DNA from: an archaeon
GTDB lineage: Archaea; Iainarchaeota; Iainarchaeia; Iainarchaeales; CSSED10-239
Assembly (NCBI GenBank): GCA_035390665.1
Contig: DAOOUC010000001.1
Coordinates: 90,001 to 122,000 of the forward strand
Length of the DNA: 32,000 bases
Direction: 5' to 3'
The notes beneath the pieces are model-generated. The model was given only the letters and a program-made list of their open reading frames with translations, was not told the DNA's origin and did not search any database. The translations under genes were made by a program, and so were the position numbers. Shown in pieces: positions 102-32,000 of the stretch (within the stretch, counting starts at the first letter, position 1; each line of letters opens with the position of its first letter).

Positions 102-1169
102 ATGTTTTATTTATCTTTAATCTTGTTTACTTTAATTTTTCTTATAATTGCTTGTATCTCTGATTTAAAATCAAGAGAGATTTCAAATAAATTAATCTTA
201 TTTTTTTTAATATTTGGTATAATTCTAAAATTAGGATATAGTATTATTACTAGGAATTATTCCATAGTGTTTGGTGCATTATTGTCTTTAGTTTTAACTT
301 TTGTTGTCTTTTATATATTATGGGAATTAGGAGTTATTGCTGGAGGAGATTTTAAGCTTTTCTTAGTGCTTTCTATTCTAATCCCAAATATTAATTTGCC
401 ATTTAATCTCTCAAGTATTTGGTTTCCAGCCTTTGTTTTCGTAATAAGCTTATTTATGTTACTGCCATGGATAATAATATATTCTATTTATTTTATTGTA
501 GTAAAAAAATATTATTTAGATCTATTTAAACTGTGGATATCAAAATCAAATTTAATATCAATGGGTGATTCAATAGCAGTAATCTTTTTGATATCACTAC
601 TGTATTCTTTATTTAGTAAGGTAACAGTTCTAATTCTTTTATTTGCATCATTTGTATTTACTATATTAATTTACAAAATAAAAAACAAGAAAATCTTTTA
701 TTCTGTTTTATTAGGATTTTATAGTTTTACAATTGTTGCTTTAGTTTTAGAAAATCAGATTAGAGCAATATCTTTAACTAATCTTTTAATAACCATTTTG
801 TTTGTAATTGGATTCTCTATACTTGGAACACTATATAAAATAATAAAAGAAAAAGTACTAATTGAAGTTAAAGCACTCTCTAAACTAAAAGAAGGAGATT
901 TGCCACTCTACAATTACTATTATAAAAATAAAAAATTAAAGTTAATTAAACCCACAGTTCTAACTAAAATAAAGATGTTATTGAATAATACCTATTATTT
1001 AAATTTAAAGATAGATTCTTCTAAAGCTTGCGGAATAACCAAAGAAGACATTCTATTTTTAAAAGGTATGTATAAAAATAATTTAATAAGCTCTAAAATA
1101 TATTTAAAAAAGACTCTGGCATTTGTTCCAGCAGTTTTATTAGCATATATTTTAGTAATAATAATTTAG
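102..1169 (+). CDS. A24-family aspartyl prepilin/preflagellin peptidase (EppA/PibD/FlaK-like)
   Basis: 355-aa polytopic membrane ORF. It has both catalytic-Asp contexts of A24 peptidases: ACISDLKSREISN near the N-terminus and GVIAGGDFKLF (GxGD-like). The terminal AFVPAVLL helix also fits. Two class III signal peptide genes follow immediately. It is longer than FlaK/PibD-type enzymes, so the EppA-like call is inference. Confidence 0.8.
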   Translation: MFYLSLILFTLIFLIIACISDLKSREISNKLILFFLIFGIILKLGYSIITRNYSIVFGALLSLVLTFVVFYILWELGVIAGGDFKLFLVLSILIPNINLPFNLSSIWFPAFVFVISLFMLLPWIIIYSIYFIVVKKYYLDLFKLWISKSNLISMGDSIAVIFLISLLYSLFSKVTVLILLFASFVFTILIYKIKNKKIFYSVLLGFYSFTIVALVLENQIRAISLTNLLITILFVIGFSILGTLYKIIKEKVLIEVKALSKLKEGDLPLYNYYYKNKKLKLIKPTVLTKIKMLLNNTYYLNLKIDSSKACGITKEDILFLKGMYKNNLISSKIYLKKTLAFVPAVLLAYILVIII

Positions 1170-2970: not shown

Positions 2971-4167
2971 TTGTTTCTCGTAGATGTTATTGCAGGAATT
3001 CTGTTTGGTTTTGCTCTTGGATTAATTCCGAGTTTGCATATTAACCTCATAGGTTATCTTTTTTCCTTATTTGGGATGTTTATGTTTTTCAAAAACCACT
3101 TCTATTTTTTCTTTTCTCTTTGTATTTCTCAGACTCTTACAAGTATTGTTCCTTCTTTTCTTTTTTATGCTCCAACCCCCGACACCTTAATTTCACCATT
3201 TCTTGGACAACCTGAAAGCCCCAAAATAGCTCTTTTAGAATATTTTTCTCTTTCTTTCTTTGGTTTTCTTCTTGGTGCTTTTTTCGCAGTTTTATTTCTC
3301 CCAATTTTTTACTTATTGTTTGTTATGTTTTCGGATTTCTACATTTTGATTTTTATTGTTCTTTTGCTTGTCTTGATATTTTTAATCTTTCAAGAAAATT
3401 ATTGGCAATCTTGTGGCCTTGTGTTTTCTATTGTTGTTTTTTCTGGGGTATTAGGCACCTTTACTTTAAAATATAATTTCTTTTTCAAAGAACCGTTAAT
3501 TCCGTGTATTTTTGGCTTGTTTGCTTTCCCAAATATTTTAGTGATTTTGTTTTCTGATAGTAAGGGTCAGGAAAAGTCAAGTCCATCTGTCCAAGAAATA
3601 ATAAGTTTTAAAGATATTGTTAACTCTTCTTTTCTTGGCACCCTCTTTTCCTCAACTATAGCTATTTTCCCTTCTCTTAGCCCAGGTCTTGCTATGTCTT
3701 TTGCTTCTTTTTTTCAAGATAAAAATTCTTCAAAAAAAACAATCGTAATGTTTTCAAGCATTCTTTCAAGTGTGCTACTAATTTATTTTTTCTTGTCTGT
3801 TGTTTTTAACAAGCACAGGCTTGGTTTCTTATCAATGCTTTCTACAAACCAAATTTTTCCAAAAATGGTTCTATCTGATATTTTCTTTATGTCTTTTGTT
3901 TTTCTTTTAGTTGTTGGTTTAACTGTGTTTATAATTTACAGTTCAATAGACACAATTATTTTTTTTCTAAATAGGTTTGATAAAAGAAATATTTTATTTT
4001 GTGTTTCTACTTTTTCCATTCTCCTTATATTTTGGTTTTGCGGCCTTGCGGGGGTTTTCCTTTTGCTTGTTTCTACAGCAATTGGTTTTTTGCCAATAGT
4101 TTATAATAAAAACAGATTGGCTCTAATGTCTTATTTAATTATTCCAACAGTTTTGTTTTTTGTTTAA
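2971..4167 (+). CDS. Polytopic integral membrane protein, possibly DUF112/TctA-like (COG1784-type)
   Basis: 398 aa and at least 10 hydrophobic segments. The TTG start is supported by a strong AGGAGGT SD at 2955-2961, and no in-frame ATG is nearby. Two G-x-x-(P)-S/G-L motifs (GLIPSLHINL, IFPSLSPGLAM) resemble the duplicated PG(L/I) motifs of TctA/DUF112 proteins. The family call comes from memory of the motif only. Confidence 0.4.
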   Translation: MFLVDVIAGILFGFALGLIPSLHINLIGYLFSLFGMFMFFKNHFYFFFSLCISQTLTSIVPSFLFYAPTPDTLISPFLGQPESPKIALLEYFSLSFFGFLLGAFFAVLFLPIFYLLFVMFSDFYILIFIVLLLVLIFLIFQENYWQSCGLVFSIVVFSGVLGTFTLKYNFFFKEPLIPCIFGLFAFPNILVILFSDSKGQEKSSPSVQEIISFKDIVNSSFLGTLFSSTIAIFPSLSPGLAMSFASFFQDKNSSKKTIVMFSSILSSVLLIYFFLSVVFNKHRLGFLSMLSTNQIFPKMVLSDIFFMSFVFLLVVGLTVFIIYSSIDTIIFFLNRFDKRNILFCVSTFSILLIFWFCGLAGVFLLLVSTAIGFLPIVYNKNRLALMSYLIIPTVLFFV

Positions 4168-4175
4168 TTAAGGAA

Positions 4176-4556
4176 ATGGATATTATGAGTAACTGGAAAA
4201 TAAAGAAAAAAATCCTATTGACAATCATGGAATTATCTAAAGAGGCTTATCCAAATGAATTTAGTGGAATGCTTGTTGGGGATAAAGACGAAAAGATTAT
4301 TGATGACATCTATATAATTCCAGCAACAATAAATAATCACAATTCTTCAACTCTTCGTTTAGACTTGGTGCCAATGTCTTTTTCAATCGTAGGCTCTGTT
4401 CACTCACACCCATCTTCTTCAAGTCAAGCTTCAAGAGCAGATCAGAAATTTTTCCAAAGTAAAGCAATAAATATTATTTCAAGATATCCTTATAGCCCAA
4501 TGGATTTTACAGCTTACAACCACAAAGGAGAAGAAGTTGGAATTGAAATAATCTAA
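4176..4556 (+). CDS. Stand-alone JAMM/MPN+ metalloprotease (Mov34/PAD-1 family)
   Basis: The JAMM motif is complete: upstream Glu in YPNEFSGMLVG, then HSHPSSSSQASRAD, which fits H-x-H-x7-S-x2-D exactly. Its size (about 125 aa) matches minimal archaeal JAMM proteins. The true start may be the ATG at 4188. Confidence 0.8.
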   Translation: MDIMSNWKIKKKILLTIMELSKEAYPNEFSGMLVGDKDEKIIDDIYIIPATINNHNSSTLRLDLVPMSFSIVGSVHSHPSSSSQASRADQKFFQSKAINIISRYPYSPMDFTAYNHKGEEVGIEII

Positions 4557-4610
4557 TTTTATTTATAAAAACCTAAGTTTTTATATGTTATTATTATTAT
4601 TATTCTTATT

Positions 4611-5543
4611 ATGAGAAAAAGAAAATTTAAATTCAAAGCCCTTTCGCCAATAGTTGCAACAATTCTTTTAGTTGTTGTTTCTGTAATTCTGGTTTCAATA
4701 GTTTTGAATTGGGGCAGAAACATTACAAACTCTAGTTTAAATGAAACAGACCCAATACTAAAGCAAACAAATCAGAACTATTTAATAGGCAGCCCAAAGC
4801 TTAATGCCCAAGGCATTCTTACTTTTAAGAATATCACTCCCGGTGAGAAATCAATAACAATAACTAGCTATCAGATAGTCAGTAGTTCAGAAGACGATAA
4901 CTTCAACAACACAATAGCCCTTAATGAAACTACAATCCAGCCAGGCGCTACACACGTCATCTCAATACAGGCCTTTCCACCAGAACCAAAATTTACAATA
5001 TTATTAATCACAGATGAAAACGAATATATCTCAATAGAAGGAATAAGAAATCCCCCAGTAACATTACAAGATATTCCTGTAGAAGAAGTTCTTGAACTTC
5101 CATATGTTATGGATGGAGAGAATAAATTATACATTCATCCAACAGATAATTCTACAGGTGTTGCTTGGGGCTGTCCAGGGACATTAATTGGTTCTGGTGC
5201 TCAATCACTAACAAATGGTTTAGCAAACACCACTGCGATTCTTGCAGGCTGTGTAACAAGACCAATAGCTGCAAGTATTTGTAATGATTTAGATTTTGGA
5301 GGATATGATGATTGGTATCTTCCTGCGAGAGATCAGCTGGGTGAAATTTGTAGTTACCAAGCAGTTATATATACAGGAGATTATAGTAGTTCTTGGATAG
5401 GTCTTGATTTTTGTAGTTATAGTTATTGGACAAGTACAGAATGGGGCGCTAACGACGCATACTATATGGAACCAGGTGGTTGGAGCCTAGAACAAAGTTC
5501 AAAGTCCGAAATATATCGTGTACGTTGTGTTCGTGGAGGATAA
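4611..5543 (+). CDS. Archaeal type IV pilin N-terminal domain protein fused to a C-terminal DUF1566 (Lcl C-terminal-like) domain
   Basis: The N-terminus MRKRKFKFKA|LSPIVATILLVVVSVILVSIVLNWG matches the Pilin_N/DUF1628-type class III signal. The C-terminus ICNDLDFGGYDDWYLPARDQLGEI...YWTSTEWGANDAYYM...IYRVRCVRGG matches the DUF1566 hallmarks (GG..DWrLP...EL ... YWsSte ... vRCVR). Confidence 0.8.
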   Translation: MRKRKFKFKALSPIVATILLVVVSVILVSIVLNWGRNITNSSLNETDPILKQTNQNYLIGSPKLNAQGILTFKNITPGEKSITITSYQIVSSSEDDNFNNTIALNETTIQPGATHVISIQAFPPEPKFTILLITDENEYISIEGIRNPPVTLQDIPVEEVLELPYVMDGENKLYIHPTDNSTGVAWGCPGTLIGSGAQSLTNGLANTTAILAGCVTRPIAASICNDLDFGGYDDWYLPARDQLGEICSYQAVIYTGDYSSSWIGLDFCSYSYWTSTEWGANDAYYMEPGGWSLEQSSKSEIYRVRCVRGG

Positions 5544-5557
5544 AATTCTATTTATTT

Positions 5558-5590
5558 GTTTTTAATTATTTTTTTATTCCTATTTTCTTT
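5558..5590 (+). terminator. Oligo-T tract candidate archaeal terminator after the pilin-DUF1566 gene
   Basis: T5 at 5559-5563, T7 at 5569-5575 and further T-runs lie within 50 nt of the stop at 5543. Archaeal RNAP terminates at oligo-T. The call is weak because the genome is AT-rich. Confidence 0.35.
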
Positions 5591-5730: not shown

Positions 5731-6267
5731 ATGAGTACAGACAATAAAGAATCCATCTCAAAAGAGGAAGAAACAAAAATTAAAGAAACAATAGAGACAA
5801 TAAAACAAAAACTTGAAGAACAAGACAAACTTTCTAAAGAGTATCTGGATTTGCTTCAAAGAACACAAGCAGAGTTTAGAAACTATAAGCAAAGAGTTGA
5901 AAGGGAAACACAAGATATTATCTTTATAGAGAAAGCAAAAATCTTAGCTGAATTTTTAAATTATAGAGACACAATTGTTAAAGCAATAGAAAAAGAAAAA
6001 GAAGAGATTACAAAAAAATCTCTAGAGCACATGTTAGTAAATTACGATATTATTCTAAAAAGGCAAGGCATAGAAAAACTAGAAGTTATAGGTAAAGACT
6101 TTGATTATAATTTCTGTGATTGTTTGTTAAAGCAAGAGTGTGAAGAAGATAAAGACAATAAAGTAATTGCAATTATTGAAGATGGCTTTACATTAAATAA
6201 AAGATTAATAAAACCAGCAAAGGTTATTGTTGGTGCAAGTAAAAAAGAAAATGGTGATAAGATATGA
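5731..6267 (+). CDS. grpE: GrpE nucleotide exchange factor
   Basis: A coiled-coil N-terminal half carries [18 protein letters not shown] (GrpE signature region), followed by a beta C-terminal domain. The stop overlaps the dnaK start (ATGA at 6264-6267). I prefer the ATG at 5731 (GAGGA SD at 5721-5725) over the GTG at 5719 used by the ORF track. Confidence 0.9.
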
Positions 6268-8066
6268 GTAAAGTAATTGGAATTGATTTAGGTACAACAT
6301 ATTCTGCAGTTTCTGTTGTAGAAGCTGGACAGCCAAAAATTTTAATTAATTCAGAAGGGTCAAGAACAACCCCTTCTGTTGTTGGATTATCTAATGGCGA
6401 AATAATTGTTGGAGCATTAGCAAAAAGGCAAGCAGTTGTTAATCCAGACAATACCATATATTCCATAAAAAGAAAAATGGGAAGTGGAGATAAAGTTAAA
6501 ATTGGAGGAAAAGATCATTCCCCAGAACAGATTTCTGCATATATTTTACAAAAATTAAAAAAAGATGCTGAAGAACAATTGGGTCAAAAAATTACTCAAG
6601 CAGTAATAACAGTTCCAGCATATTTTTCAGACTCTCAAAGAAAAGCAACAAAGGCAGCAGGAGAGATTGCTGGTCTAGAAGTTTTAAGAATAATTAACGA
6701 ACCAACAGCTGCTGCTTTAGCGTATGGTCTAGATAAAAAACACGCCCACACAATTTTAGTATTTGATTTTGGTGGTGGAACTTTCGATGTTTCTATTTTA
6801 GAGTTATCTGACGGTGTGTTTGAAGTCAAAGCCACAGCTGGAGACAACCACTTAGGTGGTGATGACATTGATCAAAAGATAATTGATTTCTTAGTTTCAG
6901 AGTTTAAGAAAAAAGAAGGAATTGATTTAATAAAAGATAAAATGGCAATGCAAAGATTAAAAGATGAAGCCGAAAAAGTAAAGATAGAGTTGTCTACAAC
7001 TTTAAAGGCAACAATTAATATCCCATATATTACAGCAACACAAGAGGGGCCAAAGCACTTAAACATAGAATTAACAAGAGCAAAGCTTGAAGATTTATGT
7101 GCTGATATTTTTAAAAGATTAGAAATTCCAACAAAGCAAGCAATTAAAGATTCAAAGCTTGATTTATCTAAGATTGACGAAGTTGTTATGGTTGGGGGTT
7201 CAACAAGAATTCCAAAAGTAATTGAGCTTGTTGAAAAATGGACAAATAAAAAACCAAATAAATCAATCAATCCAGATGAAGTAGTAGCAATGGGTGCTGC
7301 AATTCAAGGTGCTGTTCTTGCTGGAGAGGTAAAGGACATACTTCTTCTTGATGTTACTCCTTTGTCTTTAGGTATTGAAACTTTAGGTGGAGTTTTTACA
7401 AAATTAATTGAAAGAAATACAACAATACCAACAAAAAGATCTCAAGTTTTTTCAACAGCTTCTGATTCTCAAACAGCTGTTGATATTCATGTACTTCAAG
7501 GTGAAAGACCATTAGCTAAAGACAATCTAACACTTGGAAGATTCCAGTTGATTGGTATTCCTCCAGCACCACGAGGAGTTCCTCAAATAGAAGTTAGTTT
7601 TGATATAGATTCCAATGGAATAATTAATGTTTCAGCAAAGGATCTTGGTACAGGAAAATCTCAAGCAATTAAGATTACTTCAACAACTTCTTTAAGTAAA
7701 GATGAAATTGAAAGATTAAAAAGAGAAGCAGAAGAGCATGCTGAAGAAGATAAAAAGACTCAGGAAAGAATAGAGACAAGACACAAAGCAGAAACTTTAG
7801 TGTATTCTGTAGATTCAGTTTTAGAAGAAGCAAAAGAAAAGTTGTCTCCTGAAGACACAGAAGAGATAAAGAAATTAAAAGAAGAACTAAGACAAGCAAT
7901 TGATAGTGATTCAGCAGATCTAGAAGAAAAGACAAACGCCTTACAAACAAAACTTTATGATGTTTCTAAAAAGCTTTATCAAAATGCAGCTCCAAATCAA
8001 GAAGGCACAGATGATTCCAAAGACAAAGGAAAAACAGTTGATGCAGATTTTACAGAGGAAAAATAA
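6264..8066 (+). CDS. dnaK: Hsp70 chaperone DnaK
   Basis: Signature segments [21 protein letters not shown] and [12 protein letters not shown] are present, and the full 600 aa are collinear with Hsp70. The N-terminal ATPase domain is the short form ([28 protein letters not shown]), i.e. without the roughly 25-aa insert of Gram-negative DnaK. Confidence 0.97.
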
Positions 8067-30905: not shown

Positions 30906-32000
30906 ATGTTTTCAATAAACTTAAATCAAAAGAAAAAGGCCCTTGAACCACTTATTGCAACTATTTTGTTAATAGTTGTTTCTGTAATTTTAGTTACAAT
31001 TGTTTTAACTTGGGGCAAGAACTTTTCAGTAGAAGAATTAAATAAAACAAATAATATTATTTACGTAAAATCAGATATAAGTAACTATATACAATATAAA
31101 ACAAGAAGTAATACAACAAGCGAAAACAACATTTTAGAAATAAAAAATATACATCCAACAGAAACTGCAACAATTGTCGGATATAAGATATTATCTCCAA
31201 ATAGTAAATTTAGATTTTTAGACGATTATCAATTTAGTCTTGATGAAAATGCTACATTATCTCCCGGTCAATCAATTTTTTTAGGATTAGCCTGTACGCC
31301 AGAGCAAACATTTAATGTTGAATTATTAACAAGTGATAGCAAATATATTTTTATAAAATATAATAGTCTTAATTCTAGTCCAGCAAGTTGTATAAAAGAC
31401 ATGGATTTTGGTTGGCATCACGCATGTGTGGTTTTAGCAACGGGCAAAGTAAAATGTTGGGGGCGAAATGATAATGGCCAATTAGGAGATGGCACAATAG
31501 CTCAAAAAAAAATACCAATAGAGGTCTTAGATATAAATTCAGGGGTTGCAATAACCGCCGGAGATTTACACACGTGTGTTGTTTTGAGTTCAGGAGAAAT
31601 AAAATGTTTTGGAGATAATCCTTATGGTCAATTAGGTAATCAAAATACAACAGATAGCAACTTTCCAGTAACTGTTTTGGGAATAAATAATGCAATAAAA
31701 GTTTCAGGTGGTTGTTGGCACACATGCGCATTACTAAATACTGGTGAAATAAACTGTTGGGGGGCAAATACAAATGGCCAATTAGGTAATGGTACAAAGA
31801 CAAATAGTTTAATACCAGTTTCTGTTATTGATTCAAATAATGATATTATTACAAACTTTGTAGATGTAAAAGTAGGCTGTACTAATAGTTGTGCATTACT
31901 AAATAACGGACAAATAATGTGTTGGGGTAATAATCAATATGGGAAGTTAGGAGATGGCACAACAACAGATAAAAATACTGCAACACCCGTTTTAAATGTG
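30906..32000 (+). CDS. Archaeal type IV pilin N-terminal domain protein fused to RCC1-repeat beta-propeller (3'-partial, runs off the window)
   Basis: Hand-translated: ATG at 30906, then 365 codons open to the window edge. The N-terminus MFSINLNQKKKA|LEPLIATILLIVVSVILVTIVLTWG is paralogous to 4611..5543. From about codon 165 there are at least 4 RCC1-type blades (HACVVLATGKVKCWGRNDNGQLGDGT; HTCVVLSSGEIKCFGDNPYGQLGN; HTCALLNTGEINCWGANTNGQLGNGT; SCALLNNGQIMCWGNNQYGKLGDGT). It is absent from the supplied ORF track because it has no stop. Confidence 0.85.
   Translation, partial: MFSINLNQKKKALEPLIATILLIVVSVILVTIVLTWGKNFSVEELNKTNNIIYVKSDISNYIQYKTRSNTTSENNILEIKNIHPTETATIVGYKILSPNSKFRFLDDYQFSLDENATLSPGQSIFLGLACTPEQTFNVELLTSDSKYIFIKYNSLNSSPASCIKDMDFGWHHACVVLATGKVKCWGRNDNGQLGDGTIAQKKIPIEVLDINSGVAITAGDLHTCVVLSSGEIKCFGDNPYGQLGNQNTTDSNFPVTVLGINNAIKVSGGCWHTCALLNTGEINCWGANTNGQLGNGTKTNSLIPVSVIDSNNDIITNFVDVKVGCTNSCALLNNGQIMCWGNNQYGKLGDGTTTDKNTATPVLNV

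Follow-up and report, generated by a model that had tools for sequence, protein, structure and literature searches.

The window analysed here comprises 32,000 nucleotides (nt) of an archaeon of the Iainarchaeota (assembly GCA_035390665.1, contig DAOOUC010000001.1, positions 90,001 to 122,000). It contains a gene (4611..5543, + strand) in which a pilin-type anchor is joined to a DUF1566 head. This architecture was confirmed, and the gene probably encodes a modular archaeal type IV pilin adhesin of fixed specificity. The product is most likely a surface attachment protein, i.e., a surface-displayed binding module, as an earlier note made from the sequence alone had suggested. The genome containing the window (G000) was 848 kb and 86% complete, and named relatives of its PolD large subunit were almost all Candidatus Diapherotrites or Candidatus Iainarchaeum. 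The organism is a reduced DPANN archaeon, in agreement with the reduced archaeon described in the earlier note.

Gene and protein architecture

The gene and the modules of its product were located as follows (a slash marks a predicted cleavage site; DGR, diversity-generating retroelement; pLDDT, predicted local distance difference test).

4611..5543, + strand: open reading frame (ORF) of 310 amino acids (aa) for the probable modular archaeal type IV pilin with DUF1566 head (ORF reading, Pfam, NCBIfam, AlphaFold2, and Foldseek)
4611..4640, + strand: n-region of the class III signal, MRKRKFKFKA; prepilin peptidase is predicted to cut at A10/L11 (motif common to 18 paralogs)
4641..4718, + strand: hydrophobic N-terminal alpha-helix of the pilin, aa 11-36 (AlphaFold2 helix 13-36; Pilin_N match aa 9-32)
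4785..5048, + strand: pilin-module beta-sandwich (aa 59-146) with many N-glycosylation sequons (AlphaFold2 strands, pLDDT 86-94; Foldseek)
5049..5096, + strand: linker, aa 147-162, NPPVTLQDIPVEEVLE, the head-exchange point (pLDDT 67-76; stalk-sharing proteins diverge from here)
5097..5540, + strand: long-form DUF1566/Lcl_C head (aa 163-310) of C-type-lectin-like fold (PF07603; match to 8q4e)
5436..5530, + strand: head tip, aligning collinearly with the DGR variable region (95 nt) of homologues (template comparison)

The N-terminus of the window protein (MRKRKFKFKA/LSPIVATILLVVVSVILVSIVL) was comprised of a short basic leader, a [KR]-[GA] cleavage motif, and a hydrophobic helix. All 18 paralogs carried K-[AG]/[LVIF]-[SET]-x-[LIV]-I after a basic stretch, and 15 of them had P at the +3 position. 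The NCBIfam UpsA pilin model matched aa 9-121 (E 1.9e-5). Together with the resemblance of the predicted structure to archaeal pili, these features bore out the pilin-type class III N-terminus that had been read from the sequence.

The protein contained eight N-x-S/T sequons where 3.2 were expected from shuffles (P = 0.0075), and six of the eight fell in the stalk (aa 37-105). The sequon-rich beta stalk of the earlier note was thus recovered, with a beta-sandwich modelled at aa 59-146. The Pfam model Lcl_C (PF07603) matched aa 178-308 at 36.5 bits against a cut-off of 34.9; in the genome-level search the window gene scored 34.9 bits and was flagged over the cut-off. The head motifs GYDDWYLP, YW(S/T)STE, and VRCVR lined up with 30 homologues in the alignment, and with the fold match to 8q4e the assignment to DUF1566 stood. 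The head had a net charge of -9 and six cysteines, four of which were conserved in bacterial relatives. No G-x-y collagen-like repeats were found in the window protein sequence.

Predicted structure

An AlphaFold2 model built from a 33-sequence alignment had a mean pLDDT of 83.9. In it, a helix (aa 13-36) and a beta-sandwich (59-146) were followed by a linker of lower confidence and by an alpha/beta head (165-309). Two confidently folded modules therefore lay on either side of the linker (aa 147-162). The pLDDT of the head ranged from 89 to 98 apart from the loop at 251-270. A fold search was required because the sequence search of the PDB returned no DUF1566 relative, just a weak pilin match (E 0.086). 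In the Foldseek search of the PDB, the model matched first the archaeal type IV pilus of Pyrobaculum calidifontis (8fk7, E 4.6e-5) and second the C-terminal domain (CTD) of Legionella Lcl (8q4e_A, E 9.7e-4, template-modelling score 0.62 when normalised to the target). Further matches among archaeal pili were 8q30, 6nav, and 8tib, and included Sulfolobus pili. The structure prediction that the earlier note had proposed as a check thus gave a pilin-like helix and beta-sandwich followed by a linker and then a separately folded head.

A family of pilins with different heads

Using aa 1-159 as the query (phmmer then jackhmmer, E ≤ 4e-19), 18 ORFs of the genome were found to share the signal, helix, and beta-module. 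Five were plain pilins and 13, including the pilin-DUF1566 gene, carried heads. The plain pilins were 157-165 aa long, and four of the five formed a tandem array (C1:135433-137423) that immediately followed two T2SSF platform genes. The helix of the window protein was 39-53% identical to the plain-pilin helices. The head-bearing members ranged from 310 to 1324 aa and together amounted to 7,712 aa, or about 2.7% of the genome. The heads of the paralogs were as follows.

Four genes: Glug repeats (Pfam match in two, the other two by eye)
Two genes: FGE-sulfatase-like domain (Pfam)
One gene: DUF2341 with Laminin_G_3 (Pfam)
Two genes, one of them from window position 30906 on: RCC1 repeats (Pfam)
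One gene: CHB_HEX_C_1/Fn3_assoc with DUF5018 (Pfam)
One gene: DUF5018 with an unknown domain (Pfam)
One gene: unknown domain split by a Hint domain (Pfam)

The other heads of the family were mostly binding or repeat domains, and the 13 genes with a shared module and different heads appear to form a repertoire of exchangeable adhesins. Among the 21 further genomes of this GTDB family, 20 had the pilin module, with 3-29 matches per genome; of the 19 other families of the order, only one had it (E ≤ 1e-5).

Two further features of the window relate to this family.

102..1169, + strand: A24 prepilin peptidase, candidate processing enzyme and one of three in the genome (Peptidase_A24 52 bits, Arc_PepC 28.5 bits)
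30906..32000 and beyond the window end, + strand: second modular pilin of the family, pilin module with RCC1-repeat head (43% identity to query aa 7-143; RCC1 Pfam matches)

The A24 peptidase lay 3.4 kb upstream of the pilin-DUF1566 gene. In total, the genome encoded three A24 prepilin peptidases, five T2SSE-type ATPases, and the two T2SSF genes beside the plain pilins of the family. In the mechanism that we propose for a modular pilin, the short basic leader and the hydrophobic helix would put the protein into the membrane, and an A24 prepilin peptidase would cleave after Lys-Ala (A10/L11, KA/LS). The helix and the N-glycosylated beta-sandwich would then act as a pilin subunit able to assemble with the family's plain pilins, probably in a minor role or at the tip. 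The 16-residue linker would extend the DUF1566 C-type-lectin-like head, the tip of which would bind a ligand on a host cell or substrate. The presence of A24 peptidases, T2SSE ATPases, and T2SSF-linked plain pilins in this genome speaks for the modular-pilin explanation.

The RCC1 modular pilin beginning at window position 30906 extended to G000:C1:122465 and encoded a 519-aa protein with a predicted RCC1-repeat beta-propeller head. The paralog at C3:51429-53225 combined CHB_HEX_C_1 with RCC1. The gene at G000:C12:6506-7927 and the protein P0038 were modular pilins with an unknown head, '…YVDHIRMTVYYTN', broken by a Hint/intein-like domain. A different pilin system, an Epd/Tad-like pilus locus, was located at G000:C1:83499-91993 (reaching into the window at 102-1993), about 3 kb upstream of the pilin-DUF1566 gene. 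This locus contained an ATPase, two platform genes, an A24 peptidase, two KKG/Q mini-pilins, and four KG/QGALEYLL-type pilins, one of them 292 aa long.

Diversity-generating retroelements and the head tip

DUF1566 is a recognised DGR target class, category 'd'/CLec2 (PMC5758913). One DGR was found in the genome, on contig C13 and outside the window. Its target (C13:876-2228) was a paralog of the pilin family with an FGE-type head. The cassette had a variable region at 2101-2219, a template repeat at 3231-3349, two accessory ORFs, and a reverse transcriptase at 3571-4602. Between template and variable region, 20 of 21 mismatches fell at template adenines, and within the 86%-complete genome the template repeat matched only C13:2101-2219.

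Two genomes of the same genus, G007 and G009, contained complete DGR cassettes aimed at pilin-DUF1566 genes (286 and 283 aa, respectively). The 95-nt core of the G007 template was compared with three variable regions. Of 22 differences from the adjacent variable region, 20 were at template adenines; the remote P0005 gene, also in G007, gave 26 (21 at adenines) and the P0004 gene of another sample 20 (19 at adenines). The P0004 contig and the sequence up to 10 kb from P0005 contained neither a template repeat nor a reverse transcriptase; the matching template sits elsewhere in G007. Given this focus of mismatches on adenines, the nearest full-length homologues of the window protein (43-60% identity) therefore carry DGR-written tips.

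The tip of the window gene (5436-5530) was collinear with the variable regions of P0004 and P0005 and of equal length (95 nt). It kept 32 of the 56 non-adenine positions of the sister-genome template, compared with 54-55 of 56 in true variable regions. No repeat of the 3' end of the gene, and hence no template repeat for it, was found anywhere in the 86%-complete assembly. The tip was invariant in three independent assemblies; the protein of the near-identical assemblies (P0002) differed from the window protein solely at S86G. Because few template positions were kept, no repeat was found, and the tip was invariant in three assemblies, the window copy appears to have a fixed head specificity.

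Insertion site and upstream region

The gene and its upstream elements occupied a discrete segment of the chromosome.

4561..5586, + strand: lineage-specific insertion of 1,026 bp containing the whole gene, its putative promoter, and a T-rich tail (spacer alignment; ATTTT at both junctions)
4562..4587, + strand: two TATA-like boxes forming a putative promoter, TTTATAAA at 4562-4569 and TTTTTATATG at 4578-4587 (read from the sequence)
4588..4611, + strand: (TTA)5-TTC-(TTA)2 tract, the final A of which is the A of the ATG (one of two trinucleotide repeats in the genome)

The gene order TctA-JAB-grpE-dnaK, with a JAB-grpE gap of about 150 nt, was found in all 11 relatives in which grpE was located (seven from the same genus and four from the same family). 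A pilin-DUF1566 gene at the JAB-grpE site occurred only in the window's own genome and in two near-identical strains. The ATTTT at both junctions is weak evidence of target duplication because the DNA is so AT-rich, and no mobility gene was attached to the 1,026-bp insertion. This comparison of loci shows a recent single-gene insertion of about 1 kb, a cassette that brought the gene in together with a putative promoter and the (TTA)n tract.

Trinucleotide repeats of at least five units occurred only twice in the whole 848-kb genome, and one of the two was the tract running into this start codon. None of the 17 other family genes in the genome had a (TTA)n tract upstream. In the P0003-P0006 genes, TTTATATA occupied the position at which the window gene has its TATA-like boxes. 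The genes for P0003, P0004, and P0005 read TTTATATA(TTA)n-TG, with n = 8, 7, and 9, respectively, and the remaining upstream sequence was common to all three. The tract was also present in P0006, which has a like stalk and a different head; it was degenerate in P0007 and absent from P0008. The (TTA)n tracts running into start codons of relatives were located as follows.

L042:9975-10003
L045:2706-2728
L066:209-235
L081, just upstream of 210

The window tract, broken by a TTC, was identical in three assemblies. Given its eight units, the start codon begins about 27 nt away from the TATA-box centre, and changes in unit number would shift this distance in 3-nt steps. A distance of about 27 nt is the usual spacing between an archaeal TATA box and the transcription start, and for this reason the mRNA may be leaderless. 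The length of the tract may thus tune or switch expression of a probably leaderless mRNA. A scan for sigma-70 promoters and terminators was uninformative for an archaeon.

A broader reading of these data is that the pilin-DUF1566 gene is a mobile adhesin cassette, made up of promoter, tract, stalk, and exchangeable head, which is switched or tuned by slipped-strand changes in (TTA)n. This is a speculative proposal that we regard as rather unlikely; to our knowledge, phase variation of the contingency-locus type is hardly documented in Archaea. If it were true, head swapping, DGR hypermutation, and tract switching would be three layered ways for DPANN archaea to vary host attachment.

In the neighbourhood of the insertion, TctA-JAB-grpE-dnaK-dnaJ formed a conserved array in the family (window 4561-5586 compared with L068-L078). 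The dnaK gene (window 6264-8066) held 57 of 86 mismatches in one and 27 of 55 in the other of two comparisons (L064 and L065) with strains 99% alike overall, and its neighbours held 0-12 mismatches each. The mismatch-rich dnaK may be a recombined segment. An apparent excess of conservation in the pilin-DUF1566 gene relative to its flanks (Fisher P = 4e-5) was rejected, as the flank mismatches were concentrated in dnaK and the other neighbours were equally conserved.

Head exchange, distribution, and relationships

The metagenome proteins P0006-P0010 were 64-72% identical to the window protein over stalk and linker (…IPEEQQDIPVEE…) and then continued into unrelated heads, e.g., CHB_HEX_C_1 or the '…YVDHIRITVYYTN' domain. 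The P0004 and P0005 genes were syntenic; nt 1-95 were the same in both, and identity was about 45% in the stalk and 97% in the head. The DUF1566 module began at LPY(V/I)M-GE-KLYIHPTDNS, and it was found without the pilin module in P0011 and P0012. The loci of P0005 (L042, on G007:C6) and P0004 (L045) had KilA-N, SLFN/AlbA_2 ATPase, PDDEXK_1, Fic, and AbiEii genes as neighbours. These defence-like or mobile neighbours may mark a variable genomic island.

A search of 1.84 billion representative proteins gave 8,933 matches, nearly all of them through the head; both modules were spanned by a handful of 50%-identity clusters only. A contig scan of genomes with P0001 gave just five weak bacterial DUF1566 matches, the window's own genome not being among them. 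Motif searching of L020 for the G004 copy gave no usable result. In family f10 of the phylum (L057, L058, and L061; genomes G157, G132, and G146), DUF1566 heads were carried on another type of class III pilin, KGQGTIEYLVIIG…, and these fusions look like an independent assembly of the same architecture. Given the handful of clusters spanning both modules and the f10 and sister-genome cases, the architecture is therefore rare in public data and recurrent in the phylum. This is the outcome of the survey of taxonomic distribution that the earlier note had called for.

The head of the window protein was 52-55% identical to those of P0003-P0005, 47% identical to P0011 and P0012, and 45% identical to a protein labelled Bacteroidetes. 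Against the short-form heads that DGRs target in G007 and G009, identity was only 31-32%, and against the f10 heads 26-31%. A maximum-likelihood tree was built from 48 long-form heads; it was unrooted and most rows were unlabelled. Eight rows belonging to family f1 or carrying its pilin module formed one clade (99/80), made up of six rows from named f1 genomes together with P0003 and P0004. The sister of this clade was P0011/P0012, and the rows labelled Bacteroidetes fell on the opposite side of the tree. Because the tree is unrooted and mostly unlabelled, it gives no direction for the transfer of the head and speaks neither for nor against a bacterial donor. The DUF1566 heads on pilins in the phylum appear to derive from more than one head lineage.

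Alternative explanations

Several observations weigh against a pilin adhesin. The earlier note had proposed a search for PF07603 and PF07790 in the same protein; the former was detected (Lcl_C, 36.5 against 34.9 bits), and the latter was not, as the Pilin_N match at aa 9-32 reached 18.1 bits and stayed below its cut-off of 25.2. This sub-threshold score is offset by the support that the predicted structure and the paralog family supply. Thirteen head-bearing genes to five plain pilins is an odd ratio for tip subunits, and no assembly ATPase was found next to the plain-pilin locus. Class III signals can also serve non-filament surface proteins, e.g., the sugar-binding proteins of Sulfolobus. 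As to the ligand, the head is acidic (net charge -9), and this speaks against binding of sulphated glycans in the manner of Lcl. The gene ratio and the lack of an ATPase adjacent to the plain-pilin locus would suit a membrane-tethered surface lectin that is never polymerised, as would the position of the gene, alone in housekeeping surroundings and outside any pilus operon. In such a protein, the beta-domain would be just a stalk, and export and anchoring would be the sole tasks of the class III signal and helix, as in the 'bindosome' sugar-binding proteins of Sulfolobus. We regard this as possible, if on the unlikely side, because the module has a complete pilin fold whose best PDB matches are assembled archaeal pili, because its helix is 39-53% identical to those of plain pilins located behind T2SSF platform genes, and because bacterial modular pilins of the same design do enter pili (bioRxiv 10.1101/2021.01.27.428410).

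The two remaining explanations concern the head. It could be actively diversified by a DGR, with its template repeat in the approximately 14% of the genome that is unassembled. The 86%-complete genome does contain a DGR that looks active, with template adenines accounting for 20 of 21 mismatches. Variable regions that fit the sister-genome template are present in P0004 and P0005, the nearest homologues of the window protein, and the window tip is collinear with those regions over an equal 95 nt. Active diversification is nonetheless very improbable for the window copy, in which the 3' end has no template-like repeat in the assembly, only 32 of 56 non-adenine positions are kept (54-55 in real variable regions), and the tip is identical in three independent assemblies; the template of the genome's own DGR matches C13:2101-2219 only. 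A non-adhesive head, e.g., a sensor or a structural component of the envelope that the pilin module just places outside the cell, would be in keeping with the published statement that the function of DUF1566 outside Lcl is unknown (PMC11162425) and with an acidic, cysteine-rich composition unlike that of Lcl. Such a role is highly unlikely for a C-type-lectin-like fold whose studied cases (Lcl and the DGR target LdtA; PMC5758913) are all surface-exposed binding modules. Moreover, DGRs diversify the sister heads, as is typical for surfaces that bind ligands, and the other heads of the family are mostly binding or repeat domains. A pilin adhesin with a fixed head thus stays the probable explanation.

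Comparison with known systems

In Streptococcus sanguinis, the modular pilin PilB bears a vWA module and PilC a lectin module (Raynaud et al., bioRxiv 10.1101/2021.01.27.428410; PMC9934059). As in bacterial modular pilins, a short linker connects the N-terminal pilin module of the window protein to a binding module that folds on its own; one carrier likewise serves many architectures, and the presumed role is adhesion at the filament tip. The survey of modular pilins took the bacterial motif IPR012902 as its basis, and its paper nowhere uses the word 'archaea' (bioRxiv 10.1101/2021.01.27.428410). The carrier in the window has instead an archaeal class III signal of the Pilin_N/UpsA type and a beta-sandwich. 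Unlike the bacterial proteins, it bears a DUF1566 head, is one of 13 paralogs in a single 0.85-Mb genome, and would enter a pilus only by prediction. Because of its Pilin_N/UpsA-type N-terminus, the window gene is an archaeal analogue of the modular pilins and not a member of the surveyed set.

With the CTD of Legionella pneumophila Lcl (8q4e), the head shares PF07603, a C-type-lectin-like fold, and a position on a stalk, predicted here to be exposed at the surface as in Lcl. Lcl is a type II-secreted trimer with a collagen-like stalk, no disulfides, and a basic surface that binds sulphated glycosaminoglycans (PMC11162425). The window head, in contrast, is carried on a pilin, has six cysteines and a net charge of -9, and is not accompanied by collagen repeats; its identity to the Lcl-CTD was 18% in the structural alignment. 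On the evidence of the model, the analogy to Lcl holds at the level of the fold only.

The window protein belongs to the same DUF1566/CLec2 class as DGR variable proteins such as Legionella LdtA (Wu et al., 2017, PMC5758913). Its relatives (P0004, P0005, and the G007 and G009 genes) have adenine-specific variable regions in the C-terminal 95 nt, as DGR targets do. The window copy, unlike DGR variable proteins, had no cognate template repeat in the assembly and an invariant tip. A further difference is that LdtA is a lipoprotein and the window protein is of the pilin type. With archaeal type IV pilins (Sulfolobus UpsA/AapB, P. calidifontis 8fk7, and S. islandicus 6nav) it shares a class III signal, an N-terminal helix, and an Ig-like, probably glycosylated beta-sandwich. 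Those pilins are single-module proteins of 130-150 aa, whereas the window protein adds a head of 148 aa.

Meaning for the biology of the family

To the DUF1566 proteins and modular pilins already known, the window gene adds a non-diversified DUF1566 copy, a 13-member repertoire in one genome, a cassette-like insertion, and a variable (TTA)n tract. The principle of the bacterial 'modular pilin' would thereby be extended to archaeal pili. The family varies its heads by up to three routes: heads are swapped while the stalk stays conserved, retroelements hypermutate heads of the lectin fold, and repeat length at the promoter possibly acts as a switch. DPANN archaea are thought to live attached to hosts, and the molecules that make the contact are largely unknown; the 13 pilin-anchored modules of this genome are concrete candidates for host-recognition factors.

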